A DNA stretch of 64,000 nucleotides from Bacteroidales bacterium UBA4070 (lineage in GTDB: Bacteria; Bacteroidota; Bacteroidia; Bacteroidales; VadinHA17): assembly GCA_002383485.1 (NCBI GenBank), contig DFYY01000013.1, forward strand, positions 40,270 to 104,269, given 5' to 3'. Positions 5,588 to 36,619 of the stretch are shown here, in pieces (the first letter of the stretch is position 1; each line of letters starts with the position of its first letter). A program made the position numbers and the translations under genes. The notes under the pieces were generated by a model. That model made no database searches. It was not told the DNA's origin and worked only from the letters and a program-made list of their open reading frames with translations.

Positions 5588-6280
5588 ATGCTTGAACAGC
5601 TAAAGGAAGACGTTTTCAGAGCCAATCTCGATCTTGTCAGGCATGGCCTGATTATTATGACCTGGGGCAATGTAAGCGGTATAGACCGTGCATCAGGACT
5701 AATGGTCATCAAGCCTTCGGGTGTGGCTTATGATGAGATGACAGCCTCTGATATGGTTGTGACAGACCTTGATGGCCATGTGGTTGAAGGGGCGCTCAAT
5801 CCCTCCACCGATGCTCCCACACACCTGGCTCTGTATAAGGCATTCCCGATGATAGGAGGGGTGGTGCACACCCACTCCACCCATGCCACGGCATGGGCAC
5901 AGGCGTGCAGGGATATCCCCTGCCTGGGTACAACGCATGCGGATTACTTCTATGGACCTGTACCTGTTACCAGGAAGTTGACGAAGGAGGAGACTGAGAA
6001 TGATTATGAGTATAACACGGGTCTTGTCATTGCCGGGGCACTTGAGGGGAGAGATCCCATGACCATGCCGGCAGTTCTGGTGGCCTCGCACGGCCCGTTT
6101 GCATGGGGATACACACCTGCCGGGGCCGTTCACAACGCAGTTATACTGGAAGAGGTGGCAAGGATGGCATTGCTCTCAGCAAGCCTGGCTGAGACGAGGG
6201 AGATAGAGAGGCATCTGCTTGACAGGCATTACCTGCGCAAGCATGGCAGCAATGCCTATTACGGTCAGAAAAAGAAATAA
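5588..6280 (+). CDS. araD: L-ribulose-5-phosphate 4-epimerase
   Basis: [49 protein letters not shown] motifs. Confidence 0.96.
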
Positions 6281-6293
6281 TCAAAAGAGAAAC

Positions 6294-9961: not shown

Positions 9962-9967
9962 AAGAGC

Positions 9968-12461: not shown

Positions 12462-12564
12462 TAAATTGCGTAAGGAAGCACAAGTGTAATTTTTACATTA
12501 AATAATTTTAAAAAGTGATTTCAGCACTTGTTTTTGTGATTTTTGAAGTGTAAAATTAACACGT
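12462..12564 (+). promoter_or_regulatory. Promoter with two candidate AraR operators upstream of the SGBP-susC-susD cassette
   Basis: TAAATTGC (-7-like) at 12462-12469; AAGTGTA-ATTTT-TACATTA at 12482-12500 and AAGTGTA-AAATT-AACACGT at 12546-12564 (each 12/14). Confidence 0.68.
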
Positions 12565-12700
12565 AATAACAATAATTTAAATTTGGGCTATTGAATTACC
12601 CTTGTTGACAGATATCAAAAGTCATTTCCAGTGCTTGAGTTTCCCAAGCCGACCAGGGTACAAGAGTAATATTATGCAAATGAACTAAACCTTATGATCT

Positions 12701-14386: not shown

Positions 14387-14411
14387 TCACTCTGATAAAA
14401 AATATTTAACC

Positions 14412-17609: not shown

Positions 17610-17620
17610 GTGTGTAATCA

Positions 17621-19393: not shown

Positions 19394-19413
19394 GGATCAT
19401 TCTCTGGACTTAG

Positions 19414-19461
19414 AGACTTCCTTATCAGCATATTTTTTGTATGTTGGTGAGGAAGTCTTTT
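19414..19461 (+). terminator. 19-bp RNA hairpin between susD and GH43 (leaky terminator or stabiliser)
   Basis: AGACTTCCTTATCAGCATA-TTTTTTG-TATGTTGGTGAGGAAGTCT pairs fully on + with three G-U wobbles; followed by only TTT. Confidence 0.7.
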
Positions 19462-19480
19462 GAAAGAAAACAATTTTGGC

Positions 19481-21139
19481 ATGAAACTAAAGTATTTTCT
19501 GGTATTGTCACTTACTATTGCTACTCTGTCGCTGGTAGGGTGCAAAAAGGATAATACTGACCCTGATGATGATAATGATACAATTAATACATTCACCATC
19601 CCGACATATGCTGACGACTATTCATCGATATCATCATGGACAAGCCGAAACGAGTGGAACCTGGCCAACGTTCATGACCCCTCGGTTGCCTTTTACAAGG
19701 GATATTACTACATGTACGGTACCGATGCCTCGTATGGTAATGCTGCAGAAGGGCATGGTCATTTTCAGGGCAAGCGTTCAAGCGATCTGGTGAACTGGGA
19801 TTGGGTAGGCGGACCTTTTTATGAAGCACCTTCCTGGGTGGCCGACTCGCTCAATGCCATTCGTTCGCGCATGGGTCTCGCTTCCATTTCCGAGGACAAC
19901 ATAAGATATCTGTACTGGGCGCCAACAGTACGCCGGGTTAATGTCGGAGGACAGGAGACCTTGCGTATGTACTATTGCATAGTCATTGATAACTACATCA
20001 AAACCGGTAATCCCTCTACAGCCAGCTTCGACGGCAGCTGGACCGAACGCGCCTTTATCGGCATGTGCGAATCGACCGATCCCGCCGGAGCTGTATGGAC
20101 CGACAGGGGTTTCGTTACCGGTTCATCGTCAGATCGCGGCCTGGACTACACTCGCACAAGTACAAATGACTGGAGCGCCTATTTCTACTACAACGCTATC
20201 GACCCTACCTACATCGTAACACCCGAGGGGAAGCACTACCTCATACATGGCTCGTGGCACAGCGGCTTCGCACTGTTGCAGCTCAATGCAACAACAGGCA
20301 AGCCTCTCAATACACTCGGCAATCCCTGGGCAAGCAGTGCAGGTGAGTTAACCGCCCGGTATGGCGTGAGAATCGGCACACGTACGGCATCCTCGCGCTG
20401 GCAGGCCAGCGAGGCTCCCGAAATAATATTCAGGGATGGTTACTATTATCTGTTCATGGCCTACGATGCCCTCGACATACCATACAACACACGTGTGGTC
20501 AGAAGTACAACCATTGAAGGTCCGTACCTCGATATCACCGGTCGGAACTTTACCAGCGGAAGCGGTGACTGTTACCCTATCGTTACCCACCCTTACAAAT
20601 TCAATCTTAGCTATGGATGGGTAGGCATATCACACTGCTGCATCTTCCAGAAGGAAAATACCGGCGAGTGGTTCTATATGTCGCAGGGACGATTACCTCC
20701 AAACGTTGGAGGCAATCCCTATTCCAATGCCATTATGATGGGGCATGTACGCCGCATTGTCTGGTGTCCGGCTTCTCCGGGTGAACCAGATAACCTGTGG
20801 CCAATAGCATTGCCCGAACGTTACGCAGCCGTACCTGATTACGGCGCCATAACCAAAGACTCGCTGGCAGGAACATGGGAGCATATAAACCTTAAATATG
20901 ACTACAGGGTACAGGATGGCGCTTCCGCACTGACCCTCAAAGCCGACGGTACCATGTCAGGAGCCCTGACAGGCACCTGGAGTTACAATGCGGCAAAAAA
21001 GCAACTCACACTGGGCAATGTTGTTGTTTGCGTTGAACGCGAAGTAGACTGGGAGGCGAATCCGCGACGCGTGACCTTTGTTTATGCCGGAACGGGGAAA
21101 AATCTGAATGGCACATATTGGGGCAAAAAGAAAAAATAA
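19481..21139 (+). CDS. GH43 endo-alpha-1,5-L-arabinanase-like surface lipoprotein with C-terminal accessory domain
   Basis: Likely start MKLKYF at 19481; lipobox LVGC-KKDNTDPDDD; catalytic motifs NVHDPS, NAIDP, ASEAP; C-terminal domain LAGTWEHI...GTWSY. Confidence 0.88.
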   Translation: MKLKYFLVLSLTIATLSLVGCKKDNTDPDDDNDTINTFTIPTYADDYSSISSWTSRNEWNLANVHDPSVAFYKGYYYMYGTDASYGNAAEGHGHFQGKRSSDLVNWDWVGGPFYEAPSWVADSLNAIRSRMGLASISEDNIRYLYWAPTVRRVNVGGQETLRMYYCIVIDNYIKTGNPSTASFDGSWTERAFIGMCESTDPAGAVWTDRGFVTGSSSDRGLDYTRTSTNDWSAYFYYNAIDPTYIVTPEGKHYLIHGSWHSGFALLQLNATTGKPLNTLGNPWASSAGELTARYGVRIGTRTASSRWQASEAPEIIFRDGYYYLFMAYDALDIPYNTRVVRSTTIEGPYLDITGRNFTSGSGDCYPIVTHPYKFNLSYGWVGISHCCIFQKENTGEWFYMSQGRLPPNVGGNPYSNAIMMGHVRRIVWCPASPGEPDNLWPIALPERYAAVPDYGAITKDSLAGTWEHINLKYDYRVQDGASALTLKADGTMSGALTGTWSYNAAKKQLTLGNVVVCVEREVDWEANPRRVTFVYAGTGKNLNGTYWGKKKK

Positions 21140-21206
21140 TATTGATATATGGAATCCGCCTCTGATTATCCTGAGGTCAGGCTTTGACAGCGGCTCATTG
21201 TAAAAA

Positions 21207-21225
21207 AAGTGTAACTTTTTAACTG
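21207..21225. promoter_or_regulatory. Weak candidate AraR operator upstream of first GH51
   Basis: AAGTGTA-ACTTT-TTAACTG: perfect left half, degenerate right half (11/14). Confidence 0.35.
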
Positions 21226-21264
21226 AATTAGAATAATTATAAAACTAAAAACAGGAAACAGGTT

Positions 21265-22827
21265 ATGAGACATTCCAGCATCATGACGACGGGAATACTG
21301 ATCCTGTCTGCGTTGGCTTTTTCTGCCTCTGCTCAGTCAGGAGGAAAAACCAGCCAGGCTAATATTATCATAAACACAGACATTGGAACACAAACTATCA
21401 GTCGCCATATCTACGGCCATTTCTCGGAGCACCTGGGCCATTGTATCTACGGTGGCTACTGGGTTGGTGAGAATGCTGCCATCCCTAATACAAGGGGTAT
21501 CAGGAATGATGTGGTTGAGGCCCTGAGGAAGACACAGATACCCAACCTGCGCTGGCCCGGCGGCTGCTTCGCCGATGAGTATCACTGGATGGACGGTATA
21601 GGGCCGCGTGAGCAGAGGCCGAAAATGGTCAACACTCACTGGGGCGGCGTGACTGAAGACAACAGCTTCGGAACACATGAGTTCCTCGACCTGTGCGAGC
21701 AGCTCGGCGCCGAACCGGTCATTTGCGGCAATGTTGGCAGCGGATCGGTTGAGGAGATGTCAAAATGGGTGGAATACATAAATTTTGACGGCGTGAGCCC
21801 CATGGCTGACCTGAGACGCACTAACGGCCGCGATAAACCCTGGAATGTTAAATATTGGGGTGTGGGAAATGAGAACTGGGGTTGCGGCGGACATATGACA
21901 GCTGACTTCTATGCCGACCAGTACAGGCGGTATGCAACCTATGCACGGAATTATGGAGCTAACCGTCTTATGAAAATTGCAGGAGGGGCGAACACAACAG
22001 ACTACAACTGGACTGAGACCCTGATGCGCGATGTGCCTCATTTTCTGATGTGGGGAATCTCGCTCCACTACTATACCACCTACTGGGAGAAAAAGGGTTC
22101 GGCCACTAAATTCGGAGAGAAGGAATACTTTGAAACACTTGAAAGGTGCCTGAACATTGAAACAGCCCTGGACCGCCATATCACCATCATGGACAAGTAT
22201 GATCCCGCAAAACGGATCGCTCTAGTTGTTGATGAGTGGGGCACCTGGTGGGATGTGGAACCAGGCACCAACCCCGGATTTCTCTTCCAGCAGAACACTC
22301 TTCGTGATGCTATGGTGGCCGGGCTTTCACTAAACTATTTCAATGAGCGTTGCGACAGGATCAGGATGGCCAACATTGCACAGACGGTCAATGTATTGCA
22401 GTCGCTCATATTTACTGATGGTGAGAAGATGCTGCTCACGCCCACCTACCACGTTTTTGAGATGTATAAGGTGCATCAGGATGCCACCCTGCTACCTCTT
22501 ACTGTCAACTGCGGCACATATGCCATGGATGGCAGGGAGCTGGCTTCAATCAGCGCCTCAGCCTCAAAAGATGCTGATGGTGCAGTTCATATCTCGGTGG
22601 TTAATATAGAACCATCTGAGAATATAAAACTGCTAATTGACCTGCGCGGCGGAGAATATTCAGAAGTATCTGCAAGAATACTGACAGCACCTGAACTCAA
22701 CACCCACAATACATTTGAAAAGCCGGAAGAGATAAAACCCGAAGTGTTCAGGGAGGTGAAGATCAAGAAAAATATTCTGAGCCTTGACATGCCGGCGAAG
22801 TCAATCATCATCCTTGAAGCAAAATAG
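21265..22827 (+). CDS. GH51 alpha-L-arabinofuranosidase
   Basis: [54 protein letters not shown]; signal peptide ends ASA-Q. Confidence 0.95.
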
Positions 22828-22939
22828 TGTCCTGTGCGATGGTGCAAACATCATAATTGCATGCATGACCATTCAATGATCAGGCATGTCTTAAAGCGTA
22901 AAGAACGTCTCGGTGAAAAGCAGATAGATTTGTAAGGGA

Positions 22940-23941
22940 ATGAAAGCAATAAAAATATTTCTGGGAATTCTGATTTTGCTATTGTCAGTGCCCTCCGCCG
23001 GTCAGTCGGGTAACATATCCGTTCATGATCCTGTTATGATTAAAGAGGGAGGTACATTTTACCTCTTCTGCACCGGGATGGGCATTACGGTGTTCTCATC
23101 AACAGACATGAAAAACTGGAAACCTGAAAAGCCGGTGTTTGACAAGGCTCCCGAATGGGCGGTCAAGGCTGTTCCCGGATACAGGGGGCACACCTGGGCA
23201 CCTGACATCTCCTTTCATGGTGGCACCTACTACCTCTATTACTCGGTCTCTGCCTTTGGCAAGAACACCTCCTGCATAGGTGTAGCCACGAACACTACCC
23301 TTAACCTTGCTGACCCGGCATTCATGTGGGTGGACCACGGCATGGTAGTGCAGTCGGTGCCCGGACGTGACATGTGGAATGCAATTGATCCAAATGTGAT
23401 ACAAGACGATGAAGGAACTCCGTGGCTTGTATTCGGCTCTTTCTGGGACGGGATGAAGCTGACGAGGCTTGATAAGAGTCTTACGAAACTCTCTGATCCG
23501 CAGGAGTGGCATACAGTGGCGGCCCGCCCCCGTGATTACTATACTGAAGAGACCAGTGCCGGAGAGGGCGCAATAGAGGCGCCGTTCATCTTCCGTAAGG
23601 GCGGATTCTACTGGCTGTTTGTCTCATTTGATTTCTGCTGCCGTGGCCTCGAAAGCAACTATAAGATCATGGTCGGCCGGTCGGAAAATATCACCGGCCC
23701 CTATCTCGACAGGAACGGTCACCCGATGAAACACGGCGGCGGCACCCCCTTGCTGACCGGAAACAAGGCCTGGCCGGGAGTTGGGCATAACTCCGTATAT
23801 ACCTTTGACGACCAGGACTATATCATATATCATGGCTATGATGCTTCTGACCACGGCAGACCAAAGCTGCTGATCGACAGACTGAGCTGGGATGATGAGG
23901 GATGGCCGGTTGTAATAAACAGCGTCATCGAAGAAAATTGA
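22940..23941 (+). CDS. GH43 arabinanase (single catalytic domain)
   Basis: VHDPVM, WAPDI, YYSVSAFGKNTSCIG, NAIDP, FGSFWDG, IEAPFI, GVGHN motifs. Confidence 0.93.
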   Translation: MKAIKIFLGILILLLSVPSAGQSGNISVHDPVMIKEGGTFYLFCTGMGITVFSSTDMKNWKPEKPVFDKAPEWAVKAVPGYRGHTWAPDISFHGGTYYLYYSVSAFGKNTSCIGVATNTTLNLADPAFMWVDHGMVVQSVPGRDMWNAIDPNVIQDDEGTPWLVFGSFWDGMKLTRLDKSLTKLSDPQEWHTVAARPRDYYTEETSAGEGAIEAPFIFRKGGFYWLFVSFDFCCRGLESNYKIMVGRSENITGPYLDRNGHPMKHGGGTPLLTGNKAWPGVGHNSVYTFDDQDYIIYHGYDASDHGRPKLLIDRLSWDDEGWPVVINSVIEEN

Positions 23942-23981
23942 GAATACGGGAAATTCATAGCAATACTTAAACTGGAATGAT

Positions 23982-25574
23982 ATGAAACGCAATTCTGTAA
24001 AAATCGGATTAATCTTTCTCCTTCTGATCAGTTACCCGCTTATGCTGAGTTCGCAGAATGCAAGGATAAAGATTGACATAGACCGCACAATAGGCGAGGT
24101 TGATAAAAACCTGTACAGCAATTTTGTAGAGCATCTGGGTCGTTGCGTCTACGGAGGTATATGGGAACCTGGATCACCGCTCTCGGATGAAGATGGCTTC
24201 CGCACGGATGTCCTGGAGGCGGTGAAGGGACTCAATGTTTCACTGGTAAGGTACCCGGGGGGCAATTTCGTCTCAAATTACCACTGGTTTGACGGGGTAG
24301 GCCCTGTGAGAAATCCGAGGATGGAACTGGCGTGGGCACGACTGGAGCCAAACACCTTCGGAACGAATGAGTTCATGAAGTTCTGCAGTAAAGCCGGAGT
24401 TGAACCCTACTTTTCAGTCAATATGGGCACGGGAACTATTGAAGAGGCACAGCAGTGGGTAGAATACTGCAATGTAAAGGAGGGACCGTTCTATGCCGAA
24501 CTGAGGAAGAAGCACGGGTTCCCGGAGCCATATAAAATAAAATACTGGAGCCTGGGTAACGAGATGGACGGATTCTGGCAGATGGGGCATCTCAATGCTG
24601 AGGATTACAGCAAAAAGGCCCGCGAGGCAGCCAAGCTGATGCGTCTCACCGATCCGTCAATAAAGCTTGTTGCGGCAGGCTCGTCCAACTACAGGCCTGA
24701 TGCCGATCCTGACGAATGGAATGCGAAGATCCTCCGGGAACTGAGGGATGTGACTGATTATATTGCACTGCATATCTATGTTGGCAATCCTGACAATAAC
24801 TATTATAATTTCCTATCTACACCGCTCGTCTGCGAGCAGCGGACTCAACTGGTCAAGGGGATGATCATGGAGGAGATGTCAAAAGCCCAACGCGGCAACA
24901 GGGATCCCATTTATATTGCCTGGGATGAATACAACGTGTGGTACCGTGCCCGTACTGATGAGCATATGCAGGGTACCAGGGCACTGGAAGAACCTTACAA
25001 CCTGGAGGATGCTCTGGTAATCGCAGGGTTTCTCAACGTTTTCGTCCGCAATGCCGATATCATTAAGATGGCCAATATGGCCCAGCTCGTGAATGTAATA
25101 GCCCCGATATGGGCAGAAGAAAAGGGGATATTCAGGCAGACAATCTATTATCCCTTGTCGCTCTTCGCCAATTATGTAAAGGGGACCTCGCTGGACCTGC
25201 ATGTCGACTGCGACACGTATGATACGGAGGAATTCTTCATAGGCCTCGGGGAGAGCACCACGAAACAGACAGATGTTCCATACCTCGATGTTTCGGCAAC
25301 ATATAACAATGGCGAAGTGGTCCTGTGTGTGGTCAACAGGCACAAGGACAAACATATAACCACTGACATACTGAGCCAGGAGGGCGAATTTTCCGGCAAT
25401 TTCAAGGTATTTGAGGTTAACGGTCCTGATATAAAATCGTTGAATAATTTTGACGGAGAGCAGGTTAAGACTGTAGTTAAGCCTGAAGTCAAGAGCAAGG
25501 GAAGCAAGATCACTTATTCATTTCCTGCTCATTCTTTCACAATGCTTATAGGGAAAATTGAAAATCCCAGATAA
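23982..25574 (+). CDS. GH51 alpha-L-arabinofuranosidase (second, AbfA-like)
   Basis: NFVEHLGRCVYGGI, RYPGGNFVSNYHW, WSLGNEMDG, AWDEYNVW, MANMAQLVNVI motifs. Confidence 0.95.
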   Translation: MKRNSVKIGLIFLLLISYPLMLSSQNARIKIDIDRTIGEVDKNLYSNFVEHLGRCVYGGIWEPGSPLSDEDGFRTDVLEAVKGLNVSLVRYPGGNFVSNYHWFDGVGPVRNPRMELAWARLEPNTFGTNEFMKFCSKAGVEPYFSVNMGTGTIEEAQQWVEYCNVKEGPFYAELRKKHGFPEPYKIKYWSLGNEMDGFWQMGHLNAEDYSKKAREAAKLMRLTDPSIKLVAAGSSNYRPDADPDEWNAKILRELRDVTDYIALHIYVGNPDNNYYNFLSTPLVCEQRTQLVKGMIMEEMSKAQRGNRDPIYIAWDEYNVWYRARTDEHMQGTRALEEPYNLEDALVIAGFLNVFVRNADIIKMANMAQLVNVIAPIWAEEKGIFRQTIYYPLSLFANYVKGTSLDLHVDCDTYDTEEFFIGLGESTTKQTDVPYLDVSATYNNGEVVLCVVNRHKDKHITTDILSQEGEFSGNFKVFEVNGPDIKSLNNFDGEQVKTVVKPEVKSKGSKITYSFPAHSFTMLIGKIENPR

Positions 25575-25602
25575 AATCCACTATTTTCGAAAAAAATCTG
25601 AT

Positions 25603-26733
25603 ATGCGAAAACAAAATCTTTTCATTGGCGCAATGCTGTTGCTCATTATGTTCGGCATTGGCTCATGCGGAAACAACAAGGCAAAAGAGATGGTAACTAC
25701 TGAAAATTTCGGTTCATTTGAAGGAAAGGATGTATCCCTGTACACCCTGAAAAACAAGCAGGGTGATATTATTAAACTTACCAACTATGGGGCAGCCATT
25801 GTGGAGGTCAATGTGCCTGACCGCGACGGCAACAAGGCCAATGTGACATTTGGCTATGACAATCTCGAAGGTTATCTTAAGGGTGATCCCTATTTTGGCA
25901 AAGTTGTAGGCCAGTATGCAAATCGCATTGCCCGCGGCAAGTTCACGCTTGACAGTGTTGAGTATACACTCGCCATCAATAATGCCCCCAATGCTCTTCA
26001 CGGAGGCCCGACAGGCTGGCACAGCAGGGTATGGACCGCTGAGGTTCTCAAAGGCACCGATTTCCCCGCGGTGAAGTTCACATACAACAAGCCTGACATG
26101 GAAGAGGGCTTCCCGGGCAATGTTGTTGCCGAGGTTGTCTATACCTGGACCGATTCCAACGAGATAATAATGGATTACAAGGTCACCACTGACCGCAGGA
26201 CTGTAATAAACATCACCAACCACGCATACTTCAACCTGCATGGAGCAGGTGTGGGTGACATCCTTGACCATGAGGCTGTTATCAGGGCATCAGCATTCAC
26301 CCCTGTTGATTCGACGCTCATCCCCACCGGGGAACTCAGGCCGGTTGAAGGTACTCCTTTTGATTTCCGTACCCCGCACCTGATTGGTGAGAGGATTGGC
26401 GAAACATATGATCAGCTTATTCTTGGCGGTGGTTATGACCACAACTACGTGCTCGATAACCTCGAGGAGGTTGATGCCGAGGTGTATGATCCTTCTACAG
26501 GACGGGTTATCCAGGTTATCACAGACCAGCCGGGCGTACAGCTCTATACCGGAAACTTCCTTGACGGTACACAGACCGGCCGCGGAGGCAAGGTCTACCA
26601 GTACCGTTCGGGCTTCTGCCTCGAGACGCAACACTATCCTGACAGTCCCAACCAGGCATCCTTCCCGACAGTTGTGCTGACCCCGGAGGAACCGTTCCTC
26701 TCCAGCACTACTTTCAGGTTCAGTGTAAGGTAG
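25603..26733 (+). CDS. galM: Aldose 1-epimerase (mutarotase) with lipoprotein signal
   Basis: Likely start MRKQNLF at 25603; lipobox IGSC; VGQYANRI, LHGG, NITNHAYFNL, GYDHNY, GFCLETQHYPD motifs. Confidence 0.9.
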   Translation: MRKQNLFIGAMLLLIMFGIGSCGNNKAKEMVTTENFGSFEGKDVSLYTLKNKQGDIIKLTNYGAAIVEVNVPDRDGNKANVTFGYDNLEGYLKGDPYFGKVVGQYANRIARGKFTLDSVEYTLAINNAPNALHGGPTGWHSRVWTAEVLKGTDFPAVKFTYNKPDMEEGFPGNVVAEVVYTWTDSNEIIMDYKVTTDRRTVINITNHAYFNLHGAGVGDILDHEAVIRASAFTPVDSTLIPTGELRPVEGTPFDFRTPHLIGERIGETYDQLILGGGYDHNYVLDNLEEVDAEVYDPSTGRVIQVITDQPGVQLYTGNFLDGTQTGRGGKVYQYRSGFCLETQHYPDSPNQASFPTVVLTPEEPFLSSTTFRFSVR

Positions 26734-27131: not shown

Positions 27132-28478
27132 CTATGTCCTGATCTTGATACTGCGGAACCAGACCTCATTGCCGTGATCCTGCAGGAGGATGTGGCCCTG
27201 TTCAGCCTCACCAAAGCCGGCGAAATCCTTATACTTGCTCTCCTTGACAAGCTGCCGGTAGGCCTCACTGCCACGCTCATATTCAAGCACCTTGAACCCG
27301 TTGAGCCAGTGCTCAACATGTCCGTTGACTGAAACAATATGTGCTGTATTCCACTGTCCCACACCGTTAAACCTCTTGTTGGCGGCAGGAATGAGATCAT
27401 AGAGAGAGGCAACAGTCCTGTTGCCGTCACGGCCCATCTTTGCATCAGGATGGCGCTGGTCATCGAGGATCTGATACTCGAGGCCTATTGCAGAGCCCGT
27501 GGTAGCATAGTTTTCAGTGACGAAATATTTGACCCCGCTGTTGGCTCCTTCAGTAATCATGAACTCGAAAAACAGGTCGAAGTTCCCGTATTGGTCAACG
27601 GTGACAATATCTCCGCCACCCCTGGACTCAGCACCTCCCGAAGCAAGCACCTTAAGGCACCCGTTTTCAATTACCCAACCTGCCTCAGGGAAAGCATCTT
27701 TGTGAGCGCCTCGCCATCCGGTTGAGGTGGTTCCGTCGAACAGCAGCTTCCAGCCGTCGCTCACCTCTCTGTCAGTCAGGGTGTTCGGGATAAAGTTTGC
27801 CTGGTAGATTACGGCAGTGTCTGCATTCCTGTATTTATCGAGATTCTCTGTAACTATCCTGATATTCTTCCACATCACCCGTGTACCCGCCAGCTCATCG
27901 CTTACGGCATGTACCTGAAAACCGATAAAGCCTGAAGCATCGGCATCGTCAACCAGATCGGCAACAGGGATTCCGTTGATCCAGGTCCGTATCCGGTTCC
28001 CGATTGCCTCTACATGATAACTGTTCCAGCCTTGTCTGTTGAATGACTTCACGGCAGCCTGGTTATTTGGGGTAACAGGGTAGAGCCATCCTCTCCTTGC
28101 CTCGTCATAAATACCGCCGCTCCAGCCTCTGTCGGTCGGGTCTATCTCGATCTGGTACCCGTAGACAAGCACCCTGCCGTCATTTTCAGTGCTGTGGCTC
28201 CTGATCTGGACCCCTGAGTTCAGCAGGGTATCAACCTTCACATCAAACTCAAGTATAAAGTCAGAATACTCTTCAGTGGTGCACATGAAACTGTTTGGAG
28301 TGCCGGGGGTTGATATACCCACCATCACACCATCCTCGACAAGATATTTTGCCTGTCCGCCAAGCTGAATGAACCCGGTGAAGTCTTTGCCGTTGAAAAG
28401 CTCCTGCCAGTCGGTTTTCGTGCATCCGGTAAATGTCAGCAAGACTGAGAGTAACAGAAGAGTTGATTTCGATTTCAT
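27132..28478 (-). CDS. Tandem DUF1080 (3-keto-glycoside hydrolase/lyase) lipoprotein
   Basis: Lipobox FTGC; two domains each with W..LF(N/D)G, NSGV, YQI and G.I..Q.H motifs. Confidence 0.88.
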   Translation of the reverse strand: MKSKSTLLLLSVLLTFTGCTKTDWQELFNGKDFTGFIQLGGQAKYLVEDGVMVGISTPGTPNSFMCTTEEYSDFILEFDVKVDTLLNSGVQIRSHSTENDGRVLVYGYQIEIDPTDRGWSGGIYDEARRGWLYPVTPNNQAAVKSFNRQGWNSYHVEAIGNRIRTWINGIPVADLVDDADASGFIGFQVHAVSDELAGTRVMWKNIRIVTENLDKYRNADTAVIYQANFIPNTLTDREVSDGWKLLFDGTTSTGWRGAHKDAFPEAGWVIENGCLKVLASGGAESRGGGDIVTVDQYGNFDLFFEFMITEGANSGVKYFVTENYATTGSAIGLEYQILDDQRHPDAKMGRDGNRTVASLYDLIPAANKRFNGVGQWNTAHIVSVNGHVEHWLNGFKVLEYERGSEAYRQLVKESKYKDFAGFGEAEQGHILLQDHGNEVWFRSIKIRT

Positions 28479-28495
28479 AGTTATATGCTGTTAGA

Positions 28496-29842
28496 TTAAT
28501 ATTCAGGGAATTTCCAGGGTGCATTGTAATAAGGCCTGATAAGAGCATTGGCTTCCTCCTCGAGGAATTTGCCGGCGGCGTTATCCCAGGCGAGAGGTTT
28601 GCCCAACCTGCACGAGACGTTTGCCAGGTGGGTCATCTTGGCCACCTGTGCCCCGATTGCCACATCGGCATTCGGCAGCTTGCGGGTAGTCATGCAGTCG
28701 AGGAAGTTAGCCACATGGGCAGCTAATCCTCCTCCGGCAACAGCCTGTCCCTCAACCTGCTCAGATTTCATTTGCAGCGGTACTGCTTCCATCCGGGGTG
28801 CAGAATCAACCTCAGGAATCACTTCCCAGCCGTTGCGGTCGAGCACCAGGGTGCCGTTCTCACCCAGGAATGCAAGTCCGTGTTCCCTTCCGTAGGGTCC
28901 GTCCTTGATGCCGCATGCATGATCCCAGCTGATTGTGAAATCATCATAGACATACGAAGCAAGGAGGGTATCAGGGGTCTCCATTGCATCGGTGGGGTAG
29001 GCAAATTTGCCTCCGGCGGTGTAGACGGCATTCGGAAGGTCAGCTTTCATGCCCAGCAGGGCATAGTCAAGCAGGTGTACACCCCAGTCAGACATCAATC
29101 CTCCGGCATAATCCCAGAAGTACCTGAAGTTATAGTGGAACCGGTTCGGGTTGAAAGTCCGGTGCCTTGCCGGGCCGAGCCACATCTCGTAGTCGACTCC
29201 GGGCGGTACGGGGCCGTCAGGCTGAACGGGAAGTGTTTTCTTCCAGATCATATAAGCCCAAACCTTTACGGTCCTGATGCGTCCAAGTTTGCCGGAATGG
29301 ATGAATGCCACTGCATCCTGCCAGTGTGGGTCACTGCGCTGCCACTGACCGGTCTGCACAATGCGCTTATGTTTGCGAGCTGCCCTGACCATGGCGTCAC
29401 ACTCGGCAATTGAGTTGGCGAGCGGTTTCTCGCAATAGACATCCTTGCCAGCCTCCATGGCAGCGATTGCCTGCAGACAGTGCCAGTGGTCGGGTGTTGC
29501 CACTATGACGGCATCAACATCCCTGTTGTCCATTACTTTCCGCCAGTCCTTAACAAGCTGGGGGGGCTTTTTCCCGGCTATCTTCTCAACATCGGATGCT
29601 CTTTTGTTCAGCCACTCATCATCGATGTCACAGATTGAAACGCACTGCACCTGAGGAAACTTCAGGAATGTCTCAAGGTTTGACCAGCCCATATTACGGC
29701 CTCCGATCAGTGCCACACGTATTCTGTCTGAAGGACCTGTCTTTCTGCCCGGCATGGCGTAGGCAGATGTCACTGCACCCAGGCCTGCCAGTCCGGCTGA
29801 AGCCAGAATGGTGTTTTTTACGAAATTTCTTCTGTTACTCAT
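28496..29842 (-). CDS. Tat-exported Gfo/Idh/MocA family oxidoreductase
   Basis: MSNRRNFVK Tat motif; IRVALIGGRNMG, ATPDHWH, DVYCEKP, VQTGQWQRS, DWGVHLLD; own TACATTTG box at 29887-29894 (minus strand). Confidence 0.92.
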   Translation of the reverse strand: MSNRRNFVKNTILASAGLAGLGAVTSAYAMPGRKTGPSDRIRVALIGGRNMGWSNLETFLKFPQVQCVSICDIDDEWLNKRASDVEKIAGKKPPQLVKDWRKVMDNRDVDAVIVATPDHWHCLQAIAAMEAGKDVYCEKPLANSIAECDAMVRAARKHKRIVQTGQWQRSDPHWQDAVAFIHSGKLGRIRTVKVWAYMIWKKTLPVQPDGPVPPGVDYEMWLGPARHRTFNPNRFHYNFRYFWDYAGGLMSDWGVHLLDYALLGMKADLPNAVYTAGGKFAYPTDAMETPDTLLASYVYDDFTISWDHACGIKDGPYGREHGLAFLGENGTLVLDRNGWEVIPEVDSAPRMEAVPLQMKSEQVEGQAVAGGGLAAHVANFLDCMTTRKLPNADVAIGAQVAKMTHLANVSCRLGKPLAWDNAAGKFLEEEANALIRPYYNAPWKFPEY

Positions 29843-29916
29843 GATCTGTTTTCTCTGTTACTACTGAAATTTTTGCCACTCTTTTTCAAATGTAGTAAAT
29901 CAATTCCTCATGTGAT

Positions 29917-29953
29917 AAAAAAAGTATCCTCCGCGTGTTCAGGAGGATACTTT
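29917..29953 (-). terminator. Intrinsic terminator of the DUF5695-like gene
   Basis: Perfect 12-bp stem AAAGTATCCTCC/GGAGGATACTTT, 9-nt loop, T7 tail on the minus strand. Confidence 0.85.
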
Positions 29954-29962
29954 GTACTTAGG

Positions 29963-30057
29963 CTCCCTGCCCGGTCCGGCAGGCTGTTCTGCTGAGTGGT
30001 GACTGCCCTGCCCGGCATGTGGTTGCCTGATTGGCGACTGCCCTGACCGGCAGGCAG
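29963..30057. repeat. Three degenerate CCCTG(C/A)CCGG repeat units at about 35-37 nt spacing
   Basis: CTCCCTGCCCGGTCCGGCAGGC, GACTGCCCTGCCCGGCA (30001), GACTGCCCTGACCGGCAGGCAG (30036). Confidence 0.6.
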
Positions 30058-30062
30058 CTATG

Positions 30063-32813
30063 CTAATCAGTCACCTTCAGGTTGATAACCGCAGGTTTGC
30101 TGCTTACATGTATGACGTAAGCACCTCTGCCGTTCTGTTTCAGGCGGGGGGTGCCATACCTGACAGCATTGCCCTCCCTGGAGGGGGAGCTGAAGCGGAG
30201 GAATGCCTCGGGTGACCAGTTTTCACCCTTTGCAAGGACCAGCTTCACGGCGCCAGTGGCAGTATTGTATGACACACTGTTCAGTTTGCCTGCATCCAGT
30301 GTGATCCAGAGTCCTGCAGGTGCCAGGTAAAATCTTGATCTTGCTGCGGTTGTCAGGTCGACTGTAACCCATTTACCCTTTATACTGGTATTCCCACCGA
30401 ACGATAGCCATCCGAACTCGTCGCTTTTGACAAGGTAAGTTGAGCTGTTTATCGCATAGCCCAGGAAGCCGCTGCCGTAGTCACCGGAGATGCCGTCGTT
30501 CTTAAGCGTTTGCGGGAAGGAGTGGAATGCCGCAGGTGCGAATCCGTCCTGTGTTATATTCGAGATTGCACCCATCACACCACCGTATCCCACGCGCAGG
30601 AGGTACAGATCCGACGGGTTTTCGCGGTACTGGTTCAGCACCGGGATGGAGTTGAGGGCCGAACCGTAGTGGTGGATCATCCGCTCGAAACGGGAGAGTT
30701 TACCGGCGAAGAGGAAATCCCAGAATCGCCTTGCGTTGCCGTTATACGCCCAATGAGGCACGGTTGGCATGTAGGCGAGGATTGCATTGAGTGTGACAGT
30801 AGCCTTCTCGTCCAGCCCGAAATATTTGGCCCACATGTAAACCTCTTCCTGACCGGTGGAGTCCCACGGCATCTCACTGCCGAAGGGGTACTTCAGTTTC
30901 ATCCATACATCCACGCGGGCTTTCATTGCCGTCTCAAGGTCTGCAGCCATCTTAGTCATTCCCTCCGCCTTCAGGTCGTTGAGGATGAGAATAAAGACCG
31001 TACCCTCCATCTGTCCGAACTGTGCATAGTGCGGAGCCAGTTTTATCATCGCCATCGAGGTGTGGAAGGCGTTCTCAAGGTACCACTGCCACTCCTGCTG
31101 CGTCACCAAACCCTGGTAGTTTCTTGCCAGGCGGTACATTACCCAGTGTGCCGCCGCCACGTGGGGGTAATTGTATGATCTGCCGGCCGAGTTGGTCTCC
31201 TTCGTGTTCCATGACGGGAAGTTGCCATTGGGAGCCCAGCGGATATCCTTGTCATAGGTGCCTTCCGGCATCGACTCGGGCTCATAGTAAAAGAGGCTTT
31301 TCCTGACGCCGTACTTCAGATGGCCCTCATTGTACTGGATGCCGCCCCAGAGTGTTTGATTGACAAAGTCTTCCATCTTTTTGACTTCCTCCGGGTCAGG
31401 CATTATGAGCTGCTTCATGATGGCACCCAGCCAGCTGCCTGCACCGGCCTCATCGCTCAGTCCGGCAACCCATACGCGCCTGTCCTGCTTTACCTGTGCC
31501 TTTTTCTCATAGTCGTATGTGATCACAGAGGGTGCCCTGCCGAAGGGGTCATTCCCGTCATCGAACCATTGTTCAGTTGTAAGGAAGTTGCCGTAGGAGG
31601 CAACAACCCGGCTCTCAGGCTCTATGATTTTATAGTTGACAGTCTGCTCCAGGCCGTCCTCGTACGTGATTGTCAGCCTGGCTCTTCCCCACGATTTTCC
31701 GCTGATCTCATATTGATGCCATCCTTTGGCGTTGGCACCGGCATCCCTGATGTCAAGAGCACCTTCAGGCTCCACCTTCATCGCCTTTACTGCCTTTCCG
31801 TAGCGAATGAAAAGCTTTGCATTCACATCTTCAGGAACAACATAGCCCGGGATGCCCACTGCAACAGGCCTGCCGGCCGATACCAGGGCATTTTCGATTT
31901 CACGTACCGATCCGGCAAGGATGAATTTCACGCCGTATGAGACTGTCTCTCCCGGAGCGAGAATCTCAGAAGTGGGGTTGTTCCACTGCTCAGCATCCTT
32001 CCAGTCAGTCTCTGCATAAGACTTCGTGTGAACCATCCATTCATGGAGACCTTCGTAGGTGTAGCCTGCGGGCAGGGGGTCATCCGTCAACGGGCGCCAC
32101 GCCTCGAAGGGGGTCTTCCCGAAAGGTACAGCAACCAGTGCTTTCCCTTCGCCGTGCAGCCTCACCACCTGAAGGTATCCTGCATCGGCGCCAATATACG
32201 GATCAAAGAATACACTTTCAGAATGAGCCTGGTCAAGTGACTTTCCGTTGGAGTTGTTGTTGAACACCATTGGTATACCAAGTGCTCCGATTTCAACGGG
32301 TAACTGTGAGGTATTAGTAAGAGCGAACCTGAGAACCAGGCTGGCGCCATCCTTCTCCCAGTGTCTTACCACCCGCAGCGGGATTGAGTCAGGCAGGGTG
32401 GCAGCCAGATCAGCGGCCAGGAGTGTTTGCGGAGCGGCGGACGCGATAACCTCCACGTCCTTTCGGTTACGGGCGGTGGAATAATATTCCCATTCACTGT
32501 TGCCGCTGCGAAGTCCTATATTAATGTCGCCGAGGTGATAGAAGCGGTTTGACGCCCTCTCCTCAAGCCTGTCGCCCGGTGTGAAGTCAAATGCCTCCGC
32601 ATCATTTGTCTTAAGAAACGCGACTGTCTGGGTGGCATTCAGCACCCCGAGCCTGAAGTCAGCCGTTTCAAATTCCTTTGTCCCTTTGTCAAGTCCGATC
32701 ACCGGCGGACGGGGTGAACGCCTCTCCCCGGATCTCTGGGCTTCAGTTTTCAGCGGAAAAGCCATCGCCGCTGCCATCAGTATGACCGTTACCGGTCCTG
32801 CAATAGTTCTCAT
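30063..32813 (-). CDS. Secreted DUF5695-like protein, putative glycoside hydrolase
   Basis: Signal peptide ends TEA-Q; recognised motifs YHLGDI, DPYIGADAGYLQV, WVAGLSDEAGAGSWL, GRSYNYPHV, PFGSEMPWDSTGQEEVY, HHYGSALN, SGDYG that I associate with DUF5695. Confidence 0.75.
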   Translation of the reverse strand: MRTIAGPVTVILMAAAMAFPLKTEAQRSGERRSPRPPVIGLDKGTKEFETADFRLGVLNATQTVAFLKTNDAEAFDFTPGDRLEERASNRFYHLGDINIGLRSGNSEWEYYSTARNRKDVEVIASAAPQTLLAADLAATLPDSIPLRVVRHWEKDGASLVLRFALTNTSQLPVEIGALGIPMVFNNNSNGKSLDQAHSESVFFDPYIGADAGYLQVVRLHGEGKALVAVPFGKTPFEAWRPLTDDPLPAGYTYEGLHEWMVHTKSYAETDWKDAEQWNNPTSEILAPGETVSYGVKFILAGSVREIENALVSAGRPVAVGIPGYVVPEDVNAKLFIRYGKAVKAMKVEPEGALDIRDAGANAKGWHQYEISGKSWGRARLTITYEDGLEQTVNYKIIEPESRVVASYGNFLTTEQWFDDGNDPFGRAPSVITYDYEKKAQVKQDRRVWVAGLSDEAGAGSWLGAIMKQLIMPDPEEVKKMEDFVNQTLWGGIQYNEGHLKYGVRKSLFYYEPESMPEGTYDKDIRWAPNGNFPSWNTKETNSAGRSYNYPHVAAAHWVMYRLARNYQGLVTQQEWQWYLENAFHTSMAMIKLAPHYAQFGQMEGTVFILILNDLKAEGMTKMAADLETAMKARVDVWMKLKYPFGSEMPWDSTGQEEVYMWAKYFGLDEKATVTLNAILAYMPTVPHWAYNGNARRFWDFLFAGKLSRFERMIHHYGSALNSIPVLNQYRENPSDLYLLRVGYGGVMGAISNITQDGFAPAAFHSFPQTLKNDGISGDYGSGFLGYAINSSTYLVKSDEFGWLSFGGNTSIKGKWVTVDLTTAARSRFYLAPAGLWITLDAGKLNSVSYNTATGAVKLVLAKGENWSPEAFLRFSSPSREGNAVRYGTPRLKQNGRGAYVIHVSSKPAVINLKVTD

Positions 32814-32876
32814 ATTCTTTGATTTTGAGTTTATCCCTGTCTGTTTCTGTTCACACTGTCCCGTAGAGGACTCGTA

Positions 32877-32895
32877 AAGTGTCTAATATACACTA
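32877..32895. promoter_or_regulatory. Candidate AraR operator in the divergent DUF5695/GH3 intergenic region
   Basis: AAGTGTC-TAATA-TACACTA (12/14), 63 nt upstream of the DUF5695-like start. Confidence 0.6.
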
Positions 32896-33135
32896 ATTTT
32901 ATTAAACACACGCATGTTCCAGACAAATTAACAATACGGAGGGAGGAAGGTTCTGAAGCCGGGAAGAAGGCTTGGATGACTGAGCCCGGGAGCGCTTATG
33001 GGGAAGAGGCTCTGAGGACGGCAGGAAGGTTACGGTCTTCATCAGGCAGATGTAAACTTCATGTATGATTGTGTGCGTGCAGTGTGATCAAATCCAATTA
33101 GTGATATCTTAGCCGTAAATTCTTTCCTGCAGAAT

Positions 33136-35763
33136 ATGAAAAGAGTGTCAGTCTTCCTGTTTGCGGCGCTGGCCGCCATTACGTCAAATGCACAGCAATA
33201 TCCTTTTCTTGATACAGGTCTCTCTTTTGAGAAGAGGGTTGATGATCTGGTTTCAAGGATGACCGTTGAAGAGAAGGCTGCGCAGTTGCTTTATACTGCT
33301 CCTGCAATCCCGCGTCTCGGGATCCCTGAGTACAACTGGTGGAACGAGGCTTTGCACGGGGTGGCACGCGCCGGACATGCAACAGTTTTCCCGCAGTCGA
33401 TCACAATTGCCAACAGCTGGGATGAGGACCTTATGCTGGATGTAGCCAATGCAATATCGGATGAGGCCAGGGCCAAGTATCACGAGTTTGTAAGGCGAGG
33501 TGACCGCGGCATCTACCACGGACTGACCTTCTGGTCGCCCAACATAAACATCTTCCGTGATCCCCGATGGGGAAGGGGGCAGGAGACCTACGGCGAGGAT
33601 CCTTACCTGACCGGTCGGCTGGGGCTGAGGTTTGTGCAGGGGATGCAGGGTTCAGACCCGAATTATTTCAAGACCATCGCTACGGCGAAGCATTATGCTG
33701 TTCACTCTGGGCCTGAGCCTGTAAGGCATAAATTCAACGCCGTAATAAGTGAGAGGGACCTGCGCGAGACCTACCTGCCGGCCTTCCGCACCCTGGTAAA
33801 GGAAGGCGGTGTTTACTCGGTGATGGGTGCCTACAATCAGTTCCGCGGACATCCGGCCTGTGCAAACGATGAGTTGTACGGGATACTCAGGAATGAGTGG
33901 GGATTTGACGGTTATATAGTATCAGACTGCTGGGCGGTGTCCGACTTCTATAATTTTCAGGGGTATGCTGCCGGTCCTGCAGAGGCTGCCGCGATGGCGC
34001 TGAAGGCAGGGACCGACCTGGAGTGTGGTGTTGATTATCGTCACCTTATGGATGCCCTTAAGAGAGACCTGGTGACGGAGGCGGATATAGACCGTGCGGC
34101 ACGGAGGGTGATGATGGCTCGCTTCAGGCTGGGTATGTTTGATCCGGACAGCATAGTGGATTATGCGCGTATCCCATACCAGGCAAACTGCTCTGACTAT
34201 AACAGGTCACTGGCCAGGAAAGCGGCGCAGGAGTCTGTCGTACTGTTGAAGAACAGCAATTCCACGCTGCCGTTGAGCAGGGATATAAAATCGATTGCGG
34301 TTATAGGGCCGAATGCAGCCAGCCACGAGGTGCTTGTTGGCAATTACAACGGTATACCGAAGGATCCTGTGAGCCTGCTGGAGGGAATAGAGGCAAAATT
34401 ACGGCCGGAAGCCGATGTGCTATATGCCGAGGGCAGCGATTTGGCTCCCGGGATTCACAATCTCGTGCCTGTTCCCTCGAGGTATTTCAGGACGCCGGAC
34501 GGGAAACAGGGAGTGCAGGGCTTCTATTATGCTTCGCAGGATATGAAGGGTGAGCCGCTGTTCACCCGTACGGATGACATGATAGATTTCTACTGGGACA
34601 ATGATTCACCTCATCCGCAGATGCCCGTGAATGATTTCGGGATACACTGGGTGGCAGACCTGGTACCCCCTGTTAGCGGCATCTATTACCTCGGTACATG
34701 GGGCTCTTCAGGCTATGAGATCATTCTTGAAGGTGATACTCTTCTTTCGTTTTACAATGACCACCATGCAGCTGTGAGGGGAGTCCCGATGGAGTTTACG
34801 GCCGGGAAGAAATACCGGGTTGAGGTTCTCTACCGTAACCATGGCGGTGATGCTGATATGGAATTGCTCTGGTGTATGCCTCGAGGAGATATGATTGCGC
34901 AGGCTGTAAGGGCTGCCTCGTCCGCGGATGCAGTGGTTGTGGCGCTCGGACTCTCGCCAAGGCTTGAAGGCGAAGAGATGAGTGTGAAGCTTGAAGGATT
35001 TGAGGGAGGAGACCGTACCAGTCTCAGCCTCCCGGCAATCCAGGAAGAGCTGCTGGCAAGTCTGCTTGCTACCGGAAAGCCTGTTATTGTGGTGCTTATG
35101 AACGGCAGTCCTGTTGCCTCCCGGCAGGCGTTTGAGAAAGCCTCAGCGGTGCTGCTGGCCGGATACCCCGGTACTGAAGGAGGCAGTGCCATTGCTGATG
35201 TGCTCTTCGGCGATTACAATCCGGCAGGGCGTCTTCCCATGACTTACTACAGCTCGGTGGACCAGTTGCCTCCCTTTGAGGAGTATGATATGACAAACCG
35301 CACATACAGGTATTTCAGCGGTACACCACTATGGCCATTTGGTTACGGGCTGAGCTACACATCGTTTGATTACTCTGATCTTACTGTTCCGGAGAAGGTT
35401 ACGGCAGGCAGCGAAGTGACCGTTTCGGTTACGGTTACAAACACCGGGGTTATGGCAGGCGATGAGGTTGTACAGCTTTACCTGACCGATGAAAAAGCCT
35501 CCACACCACGGCCGATCAGGCAGCTTGAGGGATTCAGGCGTGTAACACTCAGGCCGGGAGAGAGCCGGAGGGTGGAGTTTATCCTGAAGCCGGAACAGTT
35601 CTCGATGATCAACGACAAGGACATGAGAGTCATTGAGCCGGGGTGGTTCACAGTCTCTGTGGGAGGCGGTCAGCCCGGCACCCCTGCTGAGCAGGAGGGC
35701 TGCACCCGGGTACTCGGGACCCGGATCAGGCTGACCGGAAAGGAAATGTCTGTCATAAATTAA
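33136..35763 (+). CDS. GH3 beta-xylosidase/beta-glucosidase/arabinofuranosidase with PA14 insert and Fn3-like domain
   Basis: WWNEALHG, RDPRWGRGQETYGEDP, AKHYAVH, nucleophile VSDCW, LEGEEM, PA14-like region (RTDDMIDFYW), PFGYGLSYT. Confidence 0.93.
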   Translation: MKRVSVFLFAALAAITSNAQQYPFLDTGLSFEKRVDDLVSRMTVEEKAAQLLYTAPAIPRLGIPEYNWWNEALHGVARAGHATVFPQSITIANSWDEDLMLDVANAISDEARAKYHEFVRRGDRGIYHGLTFWSPNINIFRDPRWGRGQETYGEDPYLTGRLGLRFVQGMQGSDPNYFKTIATAKHYAVHSGPEPVRHKFNAVISERDLRETYLPAFRTLVKEGGVYSVMGAYNQFRGHPACANDELYGILRNEWGFDGYIVSDCWAVSDFYNFQGYAAGPAEAAAMALKAGTDLECGVDYRHLMDALKRDLVTEADIDRAARRVMMARFRLGMFDPDSIVDYARIPYQANCSDYNRSLARKAAQESVVLLKNSNSTLPLSRDIKSIAVIGPNAASHEVLVGNYNGIPKDPVSLLEGIEAKLRPEADVLYAEGSDLAPGIHNLVPVPSRYFRTPDGKQGVQGFYYASQDMKGEPLFTRTDDMIDFYWDNDSPHPQMPVNDFGIHWVADLVPPVSGIYYLGTWGSSGYEIILEGDTLLSFYNDHHAAVRGVPMEFTAGKKYRVEVLYRNHGGDADMELLWCMPRGDMIAQAVRAASSADAVVVALGLSPRLEGEEMSVKLEGFEGGDRTSLSLPAIQEELLASLLATGKPVIVVLMNGSPVASRQAFEKASAVLLAGYPGTEGGSAIADVLFGDYNPAGRLPMTYYSSVDQLPPFEEYDMTNRTYRYFSGTPLWPFGYGLSYTSFDYSDLTVPEKVTAGSEVTVSVTVTNTGVMAGDEVVQLYLTDEKASTPRPIRQLEGFRRVTLRPGESRRVEFILKPEQFSMINDKDMRVIEPGWFTVSVGGGQPGTPAEQEGCTRVLGTRIRLTGKEMSVIN

Positions 35764-36477: not shown

Positions 36478-36619
36478 TAGCTTTGCAGATACCTAATTAG
36501 TGTATCTCATACACTTCAGTCTTTTAGGGATTTGTTTTTAACAAATACCATACTATAAGACAGTTTAGGTTTTAGGGGTTATTTTTATACCGTCCCGGAA
36601 CACCGGGACGGTTTCTTTT
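36478..36619 (+). ncRNA. Candidate ~125-nt small RNA (promoter, operator-like palindrome, terminator, no ORF)
   Basis: TAGCTTTG -7 box at 36478-36485; TAGTGTA-TCTCA-TACACTT at 36498-36516; terminator at 36589-36619; downstream gene has its own TATCTTTG box (36643-36650). Confidence 0.4.
36589..36619 (+). terminator. Intrinsic terminator
   Basis: ACCGTCCCGG-AACA-CCGGGACGGT followed by TTCTTTT. Confidence 0.9.

Follow-up and report, generated by a model that had tools for sequence, protein, structure and literature searches.

The window analysed here is a 64,000-nucleotide stretch of contig DFYY01000013.1 (assembly GCA_002383485.1) of Bacteroidales bacterium UBA4070. On its minus strand, an open reading frame (ORF) at 30063..32813 encodes a 916-aa protein of the Pfam family PF18951 (DUF5695), and a palindromic 21-mer, AAAGTGTCTAATATACACTAA, at 32876..32896, 63-83 nt upstream of the DUF5695 ATG, has the form of an operator for the repressor AraR. 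The initial annotation of this DNA had placed a secreted-type protein 63 nt downstream of AAGTGTC-TAATA-TACACTA, and the coordinates were confirmed, with the palindrome at 32877..32895 and the ATG at 32813. The similar palindromes that it had listed at 1494, 12482, and 12546 are also present.

A Pfam profile search aligned residues 58-906 of the protein with model positions 3-852 of 857 of PF18951 (E = 0), and the score of 1287.6 bits against a gathering cut-off of 25.2 makes it a full-length DUF5695 member, with no other Pfam match. A search of the protein against NCBIfam found nothing, and a single-sequence phmmer search against the Protein Data Bank (PDB) returned only noise. At least 3535 homologues exist, all of them unnamed or labelled DUF5695, and a literature search for DUF5695/PF18951 found no functional paper, in agreement with the earlier remark that the family has no established activity. 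The N-terminus, MRTIAGPVTVILMAAAMAFPLKTEA/Q, reads as a type-I (signal-peptidase-I) signal without a lipobox Cys.

We scanned the genome with an AraR matrix, symmetrised from 37 published 21-bp Bacteroides/Prevotella sites (Chang et al. 2015, PMC4666351, Table S1), which gives its own training sites a median of 21.9 bits and a minimum of 14.8 bits. The published consensus is AAAGTGTA-N5-TACACTTT, and the published sites are located at -4 to -364 from start codons (PMC4666351). The results showed that the site at 32876..32896 scores 22.75 bits, the highest value both in the window and in the 3.43-Mb, 56-contig assembly. Nine sites in the assembly reached at least 19 bits, compared with 0-2 in three locally shuffled genomes, and five of the nine lie inside the window (at 1493, 12481, 12545, 32876, and 36497). 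The simpler pattern AGTGT-N7-ACACT, with at most one mismatch, occurs six times in the window versus 1.39 times expected. The genome sites C5:51647, C55:19119, and C41:259 are in or beside unrelated or unresolved genes, and we treated them as probable false positives or unresolved.

The window also carries an araR gene (4841..5545, plus strand), whose product is an NrtR-family repressor with the Pfam domains NrtR_WHD, AraR_C, and NUDIX. It matches the crystallised AraR of B. thetaiotaomicron (BtAraR, PDB 5BS6) over its full length with 259 bits. Five of the six DNA-contact residues of BtAraR are identical in it (K179, R180, N181, K184, and K204), the sixth, R205, being replaced by K, and both half-sites at 32876..32896 match the GTGT/ACAC contacts of the BtAraR-DNA crystal structure. 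Judged from these sequences, the window AraR is a clear orthologue of BtAraR and the presumed binder of 32876..32896; its orthology and its contact residues make the Bacteroides motif usable here. Because the palindrome is the best match in the genome, because its footprint is conserved upstream of orthologous genes, and because a cognate AraR is present, it looks like a real AraR-type operator, as the initial annotation had proposed.

Conservation of the operator was then followed in relatives. In an alignment of seven upstream regions from the genus, the mean column identity was 50%, and an invariant 18-bp core, AAGTGTCTAATATACACT, was the sole conserved block; the operator was thus found in six other genus genomes. 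In all 11 loci of close relatives (73-94% protein identity), a site located between -77 and -112 scores 19.5 bits or more. The gene on the other side of the operator varies: it is a GH3 (glycoside hydrolase family 3) gene in the window and a LamG-GH127-like gene in one relative (G007), and in two loci (L033 and L035) the GH3 gene lies 2.8-5.8 kb off with the operator still beside DUF5695. Because this neighbour differs from genome to genome, we assign the operator to the DUF5695 gene. The suggestion that the same site also controls the divergent GH3 gene therefore finds no support, as the site travels with DUF5695 (once with the LamG-GH127-like gene) and GH3 is kilobases away elsewhere. Several relatives in the genus (L008, L014, L016, L017, L019, and L020) encode one or two further DUF5695-like paralogues of about 925-968 aa with 25% identity to the query; these have no AraR-type site, and the window's genome has no such paralogue.

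In gene orientation the spacer of the operator is TATATTAG, which is close to the Bacteroidota -7 box TAnnTTTG, so we infer that the operator overlaps a -7 box. This resemblance, together with the absence of spacer variation in the genus, which a pure operator would rarely show, would suit a palindrome that is not an AraR site in vivo and is instead conserved only as a promoter element or bound by another regulator. A candidate for the latter is a second NrtR-family regulator, at C22:141293, which scores 130 bits to BtAraR, adjoins an SSF transporter gene, is divergent from SusC, and is possibly XylR-like; its region (C22:141118-143942) contains an AraR-like palindrome of its own, AGAGTGTACATTATACACATA, beside its gene. 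We consider such a non-AraR role very unlikely, because the half-sites match the contacts seen in the BtAraR crystal, because no other site in the genome scores as high with a matrix derived solely from AraR sites, and because half-sites persist in the wider clade where the spacer differs (L029 and L030).

To see what kind of enzyme DUF5695 might be, a model was built with AlphaFold2 from an alignment of 34 homologues. It has a mean predicted local distance difference test score (pLDDT) of 89.4 and a predicted template modelling (TM) score of 0.90, with low pLDDT at residues 1-33. After the signal peptide, N-terminal beta-sandwiches occupy about 45-400 of the model and an (alpha/alpha)6 barrel about 400-790; a further beta-sandwich is C-terminal. 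A Foldseek search of the PDB gave one outstanding match, the polysaccharide lyase family 27 (PL27) enzyme BACCELL_00875 (5NO8/5NOK), at E 7.1e-33 and 16% identity; the alignment to 5NO8 covers 768 columns with a TM score of 0.84 on the target and 0.62 on the query. The remaining matches (GH94, GH116, GH95, and similar) have TM scores below 0.3 over the full length. The initial annotation had expected a GH-like barrel from this comparison: the barrel was found, of the (alpha/alpha)6 type, and its match is PL27.

Sequence comparisons pointed in the same direction. The DUF5695 family profile reached 5NO8 at E 6.4e-11 and 44 bits, mostly over the beta-sandwich, and a 156-aa piece of 5NO8 matched only PF18951 in Pfam, at 21.6 bits. 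A PF18951 match in the B. thetaiotaomicron control genome, seen at the level of the genome, is consistent with BT0263. Significant sequence similarity to PL27 over the catalytic module was not found, and a search of 200 genomes of the order found no PL27 homologue; the fold that marks PL27, a beta-sandwich with an (alpha/alpha)6 barrel, is present in the model. From the model, we read DUF5695 as a remote sister family of PL27 that shares its architecture. PL27, whose members BACCELL_00875 and BT0263 are L-rhamnose-alpha-1,4-D-glucuronate lyases, is its only close structural relative, and no known GH family comes as near, so hydrolase chemistry is not established by the fold. Both families occur in plant hydroxyproline-rich glycoprotein contexts. 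DUF5695 differs from PL27 in its low identity, in its greater length (by about 250 residues, with additional beta-sandwich domains), and in its genomic partners: arabinofuranosidases and peptidases accompany it, and none of the annotated recurrent neighbours is a uronate-processing enzyme.

Across 44 diverse DUF5695 members, the conserved polar residues are D422, R426, D434, S453, D454, W535, R545, N548, H551, Y560, Y578, E617, R633, E647, and D651. The conserved carboxylates and polar residues of the barrel include D422, R426, D434, D454, R545, N548, H551, E617, E647, and D651. A hidden Markov model (HMM) alignment showed that two motifs, D422-x-x-x-R426...Y-D434 and R545-x-Y547-N548-Y549, are common to DUF5695 and PL27. 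The acidic motifs picked out earlier as potentially catalytic were borne out in part: D454 and E455 of LSDEAG, S646, E647, D651, T653, and E656 of GSEMPWDSTGQEE, and D778 of SGDYG are conserved, and the E of MEGT is not a conserved column.

The kinship with PL27 raises the alternative that DUF5695 is a PL27-style beta-eliminating lyase that takes a neutral L-sugar cap (e.g., alpha-1,4-linked L-arabinofuranose (L-Araf) in place of alpha-1,4-linked L-rhamnose) off the glucuronic acid of arabinogalactan-protein side chains, with the freed arabinose feeding the AraR circuit. PL27 is the sole close structural relative, D422, R426, D434, and the R545-x-Y-N-Y motif are shared with it, a tyrosine was reportedly proposed as the PL27 base (by Munoz-Munoz, 2017, in JBC, the Journal of Biological Chemistry), and arabinogalactan proteins are likewise hydroxyproline-rich glycoproteins. 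Against this stand the 16% identity, the extra conserved carboxylates of DUF5695 (D454, E617, E647, and D651), annotated recurrent gene clusters in which no uronate-processing enzyme or galactanase appears, and partners (beta-L-arabinofuranosidases, GH27 alpha-galactosidase, and prolyl peptidases) that fit extensin. We therefore regard the lyase as unlikely.

These partners were identified in 80 orthologous loci from across Bacteroidota, for which all ORFs within 8 kb on either side were clustered and cluster representatives annotated, several of the 25 largest clusters remaining unannotated. The results showed that GH127 is the most frequent annotated neighbour (51 of the 80 loci), followed by an S9 DPP-IV-type prolyl peptidase (46), GH43 with F5/8 and LamG domains (23), GH51 (22), araR (19), DUF6055 (18), SusD (18), SusC (16), DUF885 (14), GH27 alpha-galactosidase (11), a Pro_racemase-family protein resembling hydroxyproline epimerase (10), and an FAD-dependent DAO oxidoreductase (6). 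No GH88/GH105 unsaturated-uronyl hydrolase, beta-glucuronidase, or galactanase was found among the annotated recurrent neighbour clusters of these loci. In Flagellimonas (L101) the order is S9 peptidase, LamG/Big_4-GH127-like, DUF885, DUF5695, and GH43, then araR, then GH51 and GH127; a Prolixibacteraceae locus (L044) reads FecR, SusC, SusD, DUF5695, GH127, and LamG-GH127-like; and in Draconibacterium (L085 and L087) DUF5695 lies directly upstream of araR-araA-araP-araD-araB. Fusions also occur, one metagenomic protein joining DUF5695 to a GH51-like arabinofuranosidase and several joining it to LamG.

Extensin consists of a backbone rich in proline and hydroxyproline (Hyp) that bears Hyp-O-beta-L-Araf(1-3) chains capped with alpha-1,3-Araf, and Ser-O-alpha-Gal. 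The recurrent neighbour set covers every part of this structure. Because the partners include GH127, the S9 prolyl peptidase, GH27, the Pro_racemase-family protein, and the DAO oxidoreductase, the neighbours point to a toolkit for extensin-type glycoproteins, not for arabinan. An arabinan-type setting thus gives way to hydroxyproline-rich glycoproteins with extensin-type beta-L-arabinosides. The proposal of the initial annotation, an arabinose-linked glycosidase, holds insofar as DUF5695 is a barrel-type candidate carbohydrate-active enzyme (CAZyme) linked to L-arabinose across Bacteroidota; its nearest characterised relative is a PL27 lyase and not a GH.

The arabinan view has a remaining form, in which DUF5695 acts on arabino-oligosaccharides of the pectic arabinan or arabinoxylan type, at a linkage missed by GH43, GH51, and GH127, with no glycoprotein connection in this organism. 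The gene is located beside GH3 and 3.3 kb from a polysaccharide utilization locus (PUL) with AraR-type sites that encodes a surface glycan-binding protein (SGBP), SusCD, GH43, and GH51, and hydroxyproline-catabolic genes were not found in the window's genome. We think this explanation improbable, since DUF5695 is accompanied in the 80 loci by the S9 peptidase (46), GH27, Pro_racemase, and DUF885 and not by endo-arabinanases, and since two toolkit orthologues elsewhere in the genome stand under AraR-type sites.

The first of these two orthologues is the S9 prolyl peptidase gene, at C8:28256-30457 on the minus strand of another contig, whose product has 47.5% identity to the syntenic peptidase of other phylum members; an AraR-type site, TGCGTGTATTTTGAACACTTT, lies at -39 with 16.4 bits, gene and site together spanning C8:28256-30517, and six of nine S9 orthologues in the genus have an upstream AraR-type site. 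For a sugar repressor, a protease would be a surprising target. The second is a LamG-GH127-like gene at C44:4744-7800 (plus strand, again another contig), with the site TAAGTGTATAATTCACATTTT at -131 scoring 20.7 bits and gene and site together at C44:4593-7800; all five full-length orthologues in the genus have an upstream site. Its product is a 1018-aa GH127-like protein fused to LamG/Big_4, and its shorter, LamG-less paralogues lack such a site. In G007, the LamG-GH127-like gene and what is left of DUF5695 diverge from one common operator, and the S9 gene follows after another 700 bp. Within the genus, the three genes tend to be found in the same genomes. In the window's genome, the glycoprotein toolkit is scattered, and AraR-type sites appear to tie its parts together.

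In Flagellimonas/Allomuricauda, where the S9 gene heads the DUF5695 operon, a matrix match was found 5-7 kb upstream of DUF5695: TAAGTGTATTTTTTATACTTA, 21.2 bits, at L101:751-771 and at the equivalent place in about 14 loci. It is inside the signal-peptide coding sequence of the S9 peptidase, where conservation is confounded by coding constraint, so it was not counted; it may be either a roadblock-type operator or a coding coincidence.

From these results we favour, with reasonable though far from complete confidence, an explanation in which DUF5695 is a PL27-like enzyme under an AraR operator that acts on arabinosylated hydroxyproline-rich glycoproteins. In the absence of L-arabinose, AraR would occupy the putative high-affinity operator of DUF5695, where it would probably cover the -7 box, and keep the gene from being transcribed. 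L-Arabinose freed from plant glycans would dislodge AraR, a response demonstrated for BtAraR, and DUF5695 would then be produced along with the products of the ara catabolic genes and of the arabinan-type PUL, two GH127 beta-L-arabinofuranosidases, the LamG-fused GH127-like enzyme, and the S9 prolyl peptidase. The DUF5695 product would be periplasmic or secreted and would most likely act on extensin-type Hyp-O-beta-L-arabino-oligosaccharides, at a step outside the range of GH127, GH43, and GH51, e.g., detaching the arabino-oligosaccharides from the peptide, the role that GH121 has in Bifidobacterium. Family membership, fold, the quality and conservation of the operator, and synteny come directly from the analysis; AraR binding, induction, the substrate, and the chemistry, hydrolase or lyase, are read from them.

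Several observations weigh against this explanation. Directly upstream of distant orthologues (56-67% identity; Prolixibacteraceae, Marinilabiliaceae, Flavobacteriaceae, and Sphingobacteriaceae) no matrix site was found, apart from one at -186 in L078 and a weak one in L082. Because sites directly upstream are absent outside the family-level clade, direct AraR control of DUF5695 may be a local innovation; distant orthologues are linked to arabinose by their place in an operon or PUL and next to araR. The orthologue comparison called for earlier thus came out as a palindrome kept in the genus and family clade, though not directly upstream of distant orthologues, and an ara linkage kept across Bacteroidota. 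The C22 paralogue could be the actual binder of the operator. The neighbours of DUF5695 within the window are arabinan-type enzymes, with no peptidases. PL27, the nearest characterised relative, is a lyase that requires a uronic acid at +1, and extensin contains none. A search of sequencing runs returned DNA metagenomes (hydrocarbon, soil, and sludge) and three RNA runs at only 5-6% word share. Finally, DUF5695 occurs in only some species of the genus, and its orthologues there are broken by frameshifts in two genomes (G001 and G020) and reduced to fragments in G007; patchy and often broken, the gene is dispensable. The broken copies (L003/L013 in G020, L005/L011/L018 in G001, and L007/L012/L022 in G007) still have an intact operator and could reflect either gene decay or an assembly error in these metagenome-assembled genomes.

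The regulatory part of the favoured explanation resembles the regulon of B. thetaiotaomicron AraR (BT0354; Chang et al. 2015, PMC4666351). The regulator is orthologous, the 21-bp motif is the same, the distances from start codons are similar, and operators precede the ara operon and arabinan PULs in both organisms. Unlike the window's genome, the published AraR regulons list no DUF5695, S9 peptidase, or LamG-GH127-like target (PMC4666351), and the regulon appears here to be extended to a glycoprotein toolkit that includes a peptidase. On the enzymatic side, the nearest parallel is the hypBA system of Bifidobacterium longum (GH121 HypBA2, GH127 HypBA1, and GH43 HypAA), which acts on extensin beta-L-arabino-oligosaccharides (PMC7263609): it likewise combines GH127 and GH43 with one extra large enzyme, and the proposed substrate class of the DUF5695 loci is the same. 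Transport around DUF5695 is by SusCD/TonB and not by an ABC system. No sequence similarity between DUF5695 and GH121 was detectable, and the top 50 Foldseek matches contained no GH121 structure; DUF5695 could be a functional analogue of GH121, a suggestion drawn from analogy.

Within this explanation, we tentatively put forward a more specific form, which on balance we doubt: DUF5695 would be a new CAZyme family and the Bacteroidota counterpart of GH121, a PL27-derived barrel that cleaves Hyp-linked beta-L-arabino-oligosaccharides or the sugar-peptide bond of extensins, with AraR recruited to co-ordinate glycan stripping (by DUF5695 and the GH127s) and backbone proteolysis (by S9). If it is true, overall control of a regulon for glycoprotein degradation would lie with a sugar sensor.

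Plant cell walls are rich in extensins and related glycoproteins of the hydroxyproline-rich class, and glycan degradation in guts, soils, and digesters is mainly the work of Bacteroidota. To our knowledge, microbial extensin breakdown is understood only in Bifidobacterium and Xanthomonas, where it depends on GH121, GH127, and GH43. In Bacteroidota, the place of GH121 seems to be taken by another enzyme family, one that has thousands of members. The locus adds a regulatory handle, as its AraR operator predicts that DUF5695 is switched on by L-arabinose and the prolyl peptidase and the LamG-GH127-like enzyme would be tied to the same signal. DUF5695 was already known as a function-less Pfam family; the direct AraR operator on its gene and the AraR-type sites that link a scattered toolkit are new here. 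Confirmation of its activity would make DUF5695 the basis of a new CAZy family or an enlargement of PL27.

The arabinose block of the window lies to the left of DUF5695. From its Pfam content, the first unit is araP (SSF)-araA-araR-araD-araB-GH127-GH127 at 1670..12388, preceded by an AraR-type operator at 1493..1513 (20.5 bits), and the second is the PUL SGBP-susC-susD-GH43-GH51-GH43-GH51-aldose epimerase at 12701..26733, preceded by two operators at 12481..12501 and 12545..12565 (21.0 and 20.2 bits). Three minus-strand genes converge on this block from the right: DUF5695, a GFO/IDH/MocA oxidoreductase gene (28496..29842), and a gene for a double 3-keto-disaccharide-hydrolase/DUF1080 protein (27132..28478). 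The divergent GH3 gene (Xyl3A-like by Pfam and NCBIfam matches), at 33136..35763 on the plus strand, is probably outside the DUF5695 unit. The fifth AraR-type site of the window, TTAGTGTATCTCATACACTTC at 36497..36517 (19.4 bits), lies between a cation-efflux gene (end 36411) and an RsmF-like methyltransferase gene (start 36661). An equivalent site in seven relatives (L025, L026, L028, L029, L030, L033, and L034) has conserved half-sites and a variable spacer.

Downstream of the DUF5695 stop, a putative intrinsic terminator at 29917..29950 (minus strand) consists of the hairpin GUAUCCUCC(N9)GGAGGAUAC, about 110 nt past the stop, followed by U7; the fold of 29843-30075 (minus strand) has z = -3.2, and a hairpin with a T-run is also found in two relatives (L025 and L026). 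A sigma-70 promoter and terminator scan was uninformative for this Bacteroidota genome, and the terminator was overlooked by it because of the 9-nt loop. Between the hairpin and the GFO start, TACATTTG at 29887..29894 (minus strand) resembles a Bacteroidota -7-type box and may serve as the promoter of the GFO/DUF1080 pair; in an alignment of seven intergenic regions, this TACATTTG/TACCTTTG box is within the conserved block TGATTTAtTACnTTTG. The DUF5695 gene can thus be read as monocistronic and the GFO/DUF1080 pair, therefore, as a separate unit. A single DUF5695-GFO-DUF1080 operon for an oxidative 3-keto-glycoside route was ruled out by the terminator and the conserved -7 box between the genes, and is also countered by the pairing itself, as GFO/DUF1080 is beside DUF5695 only in close relatives and is elsewhere in L035. 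The region between the DUF5695 stop and the terminator (29951..30062) contains GC-rich repeated hairpins with CTGCCCTGCCCGGCA-like units, which are absent or different in relatives. The GFO/IDH/MocA oxidoreductase is of the Tat/Sec type and weakly like the glycoside 3-dehydrogenase BT_2158 (162 bits against a cut-off of 750), and the pair (27132..29842, minus strand), with its own TACATTTG box, looks like a periplasmic oxidative glycoside-cleavage pair.

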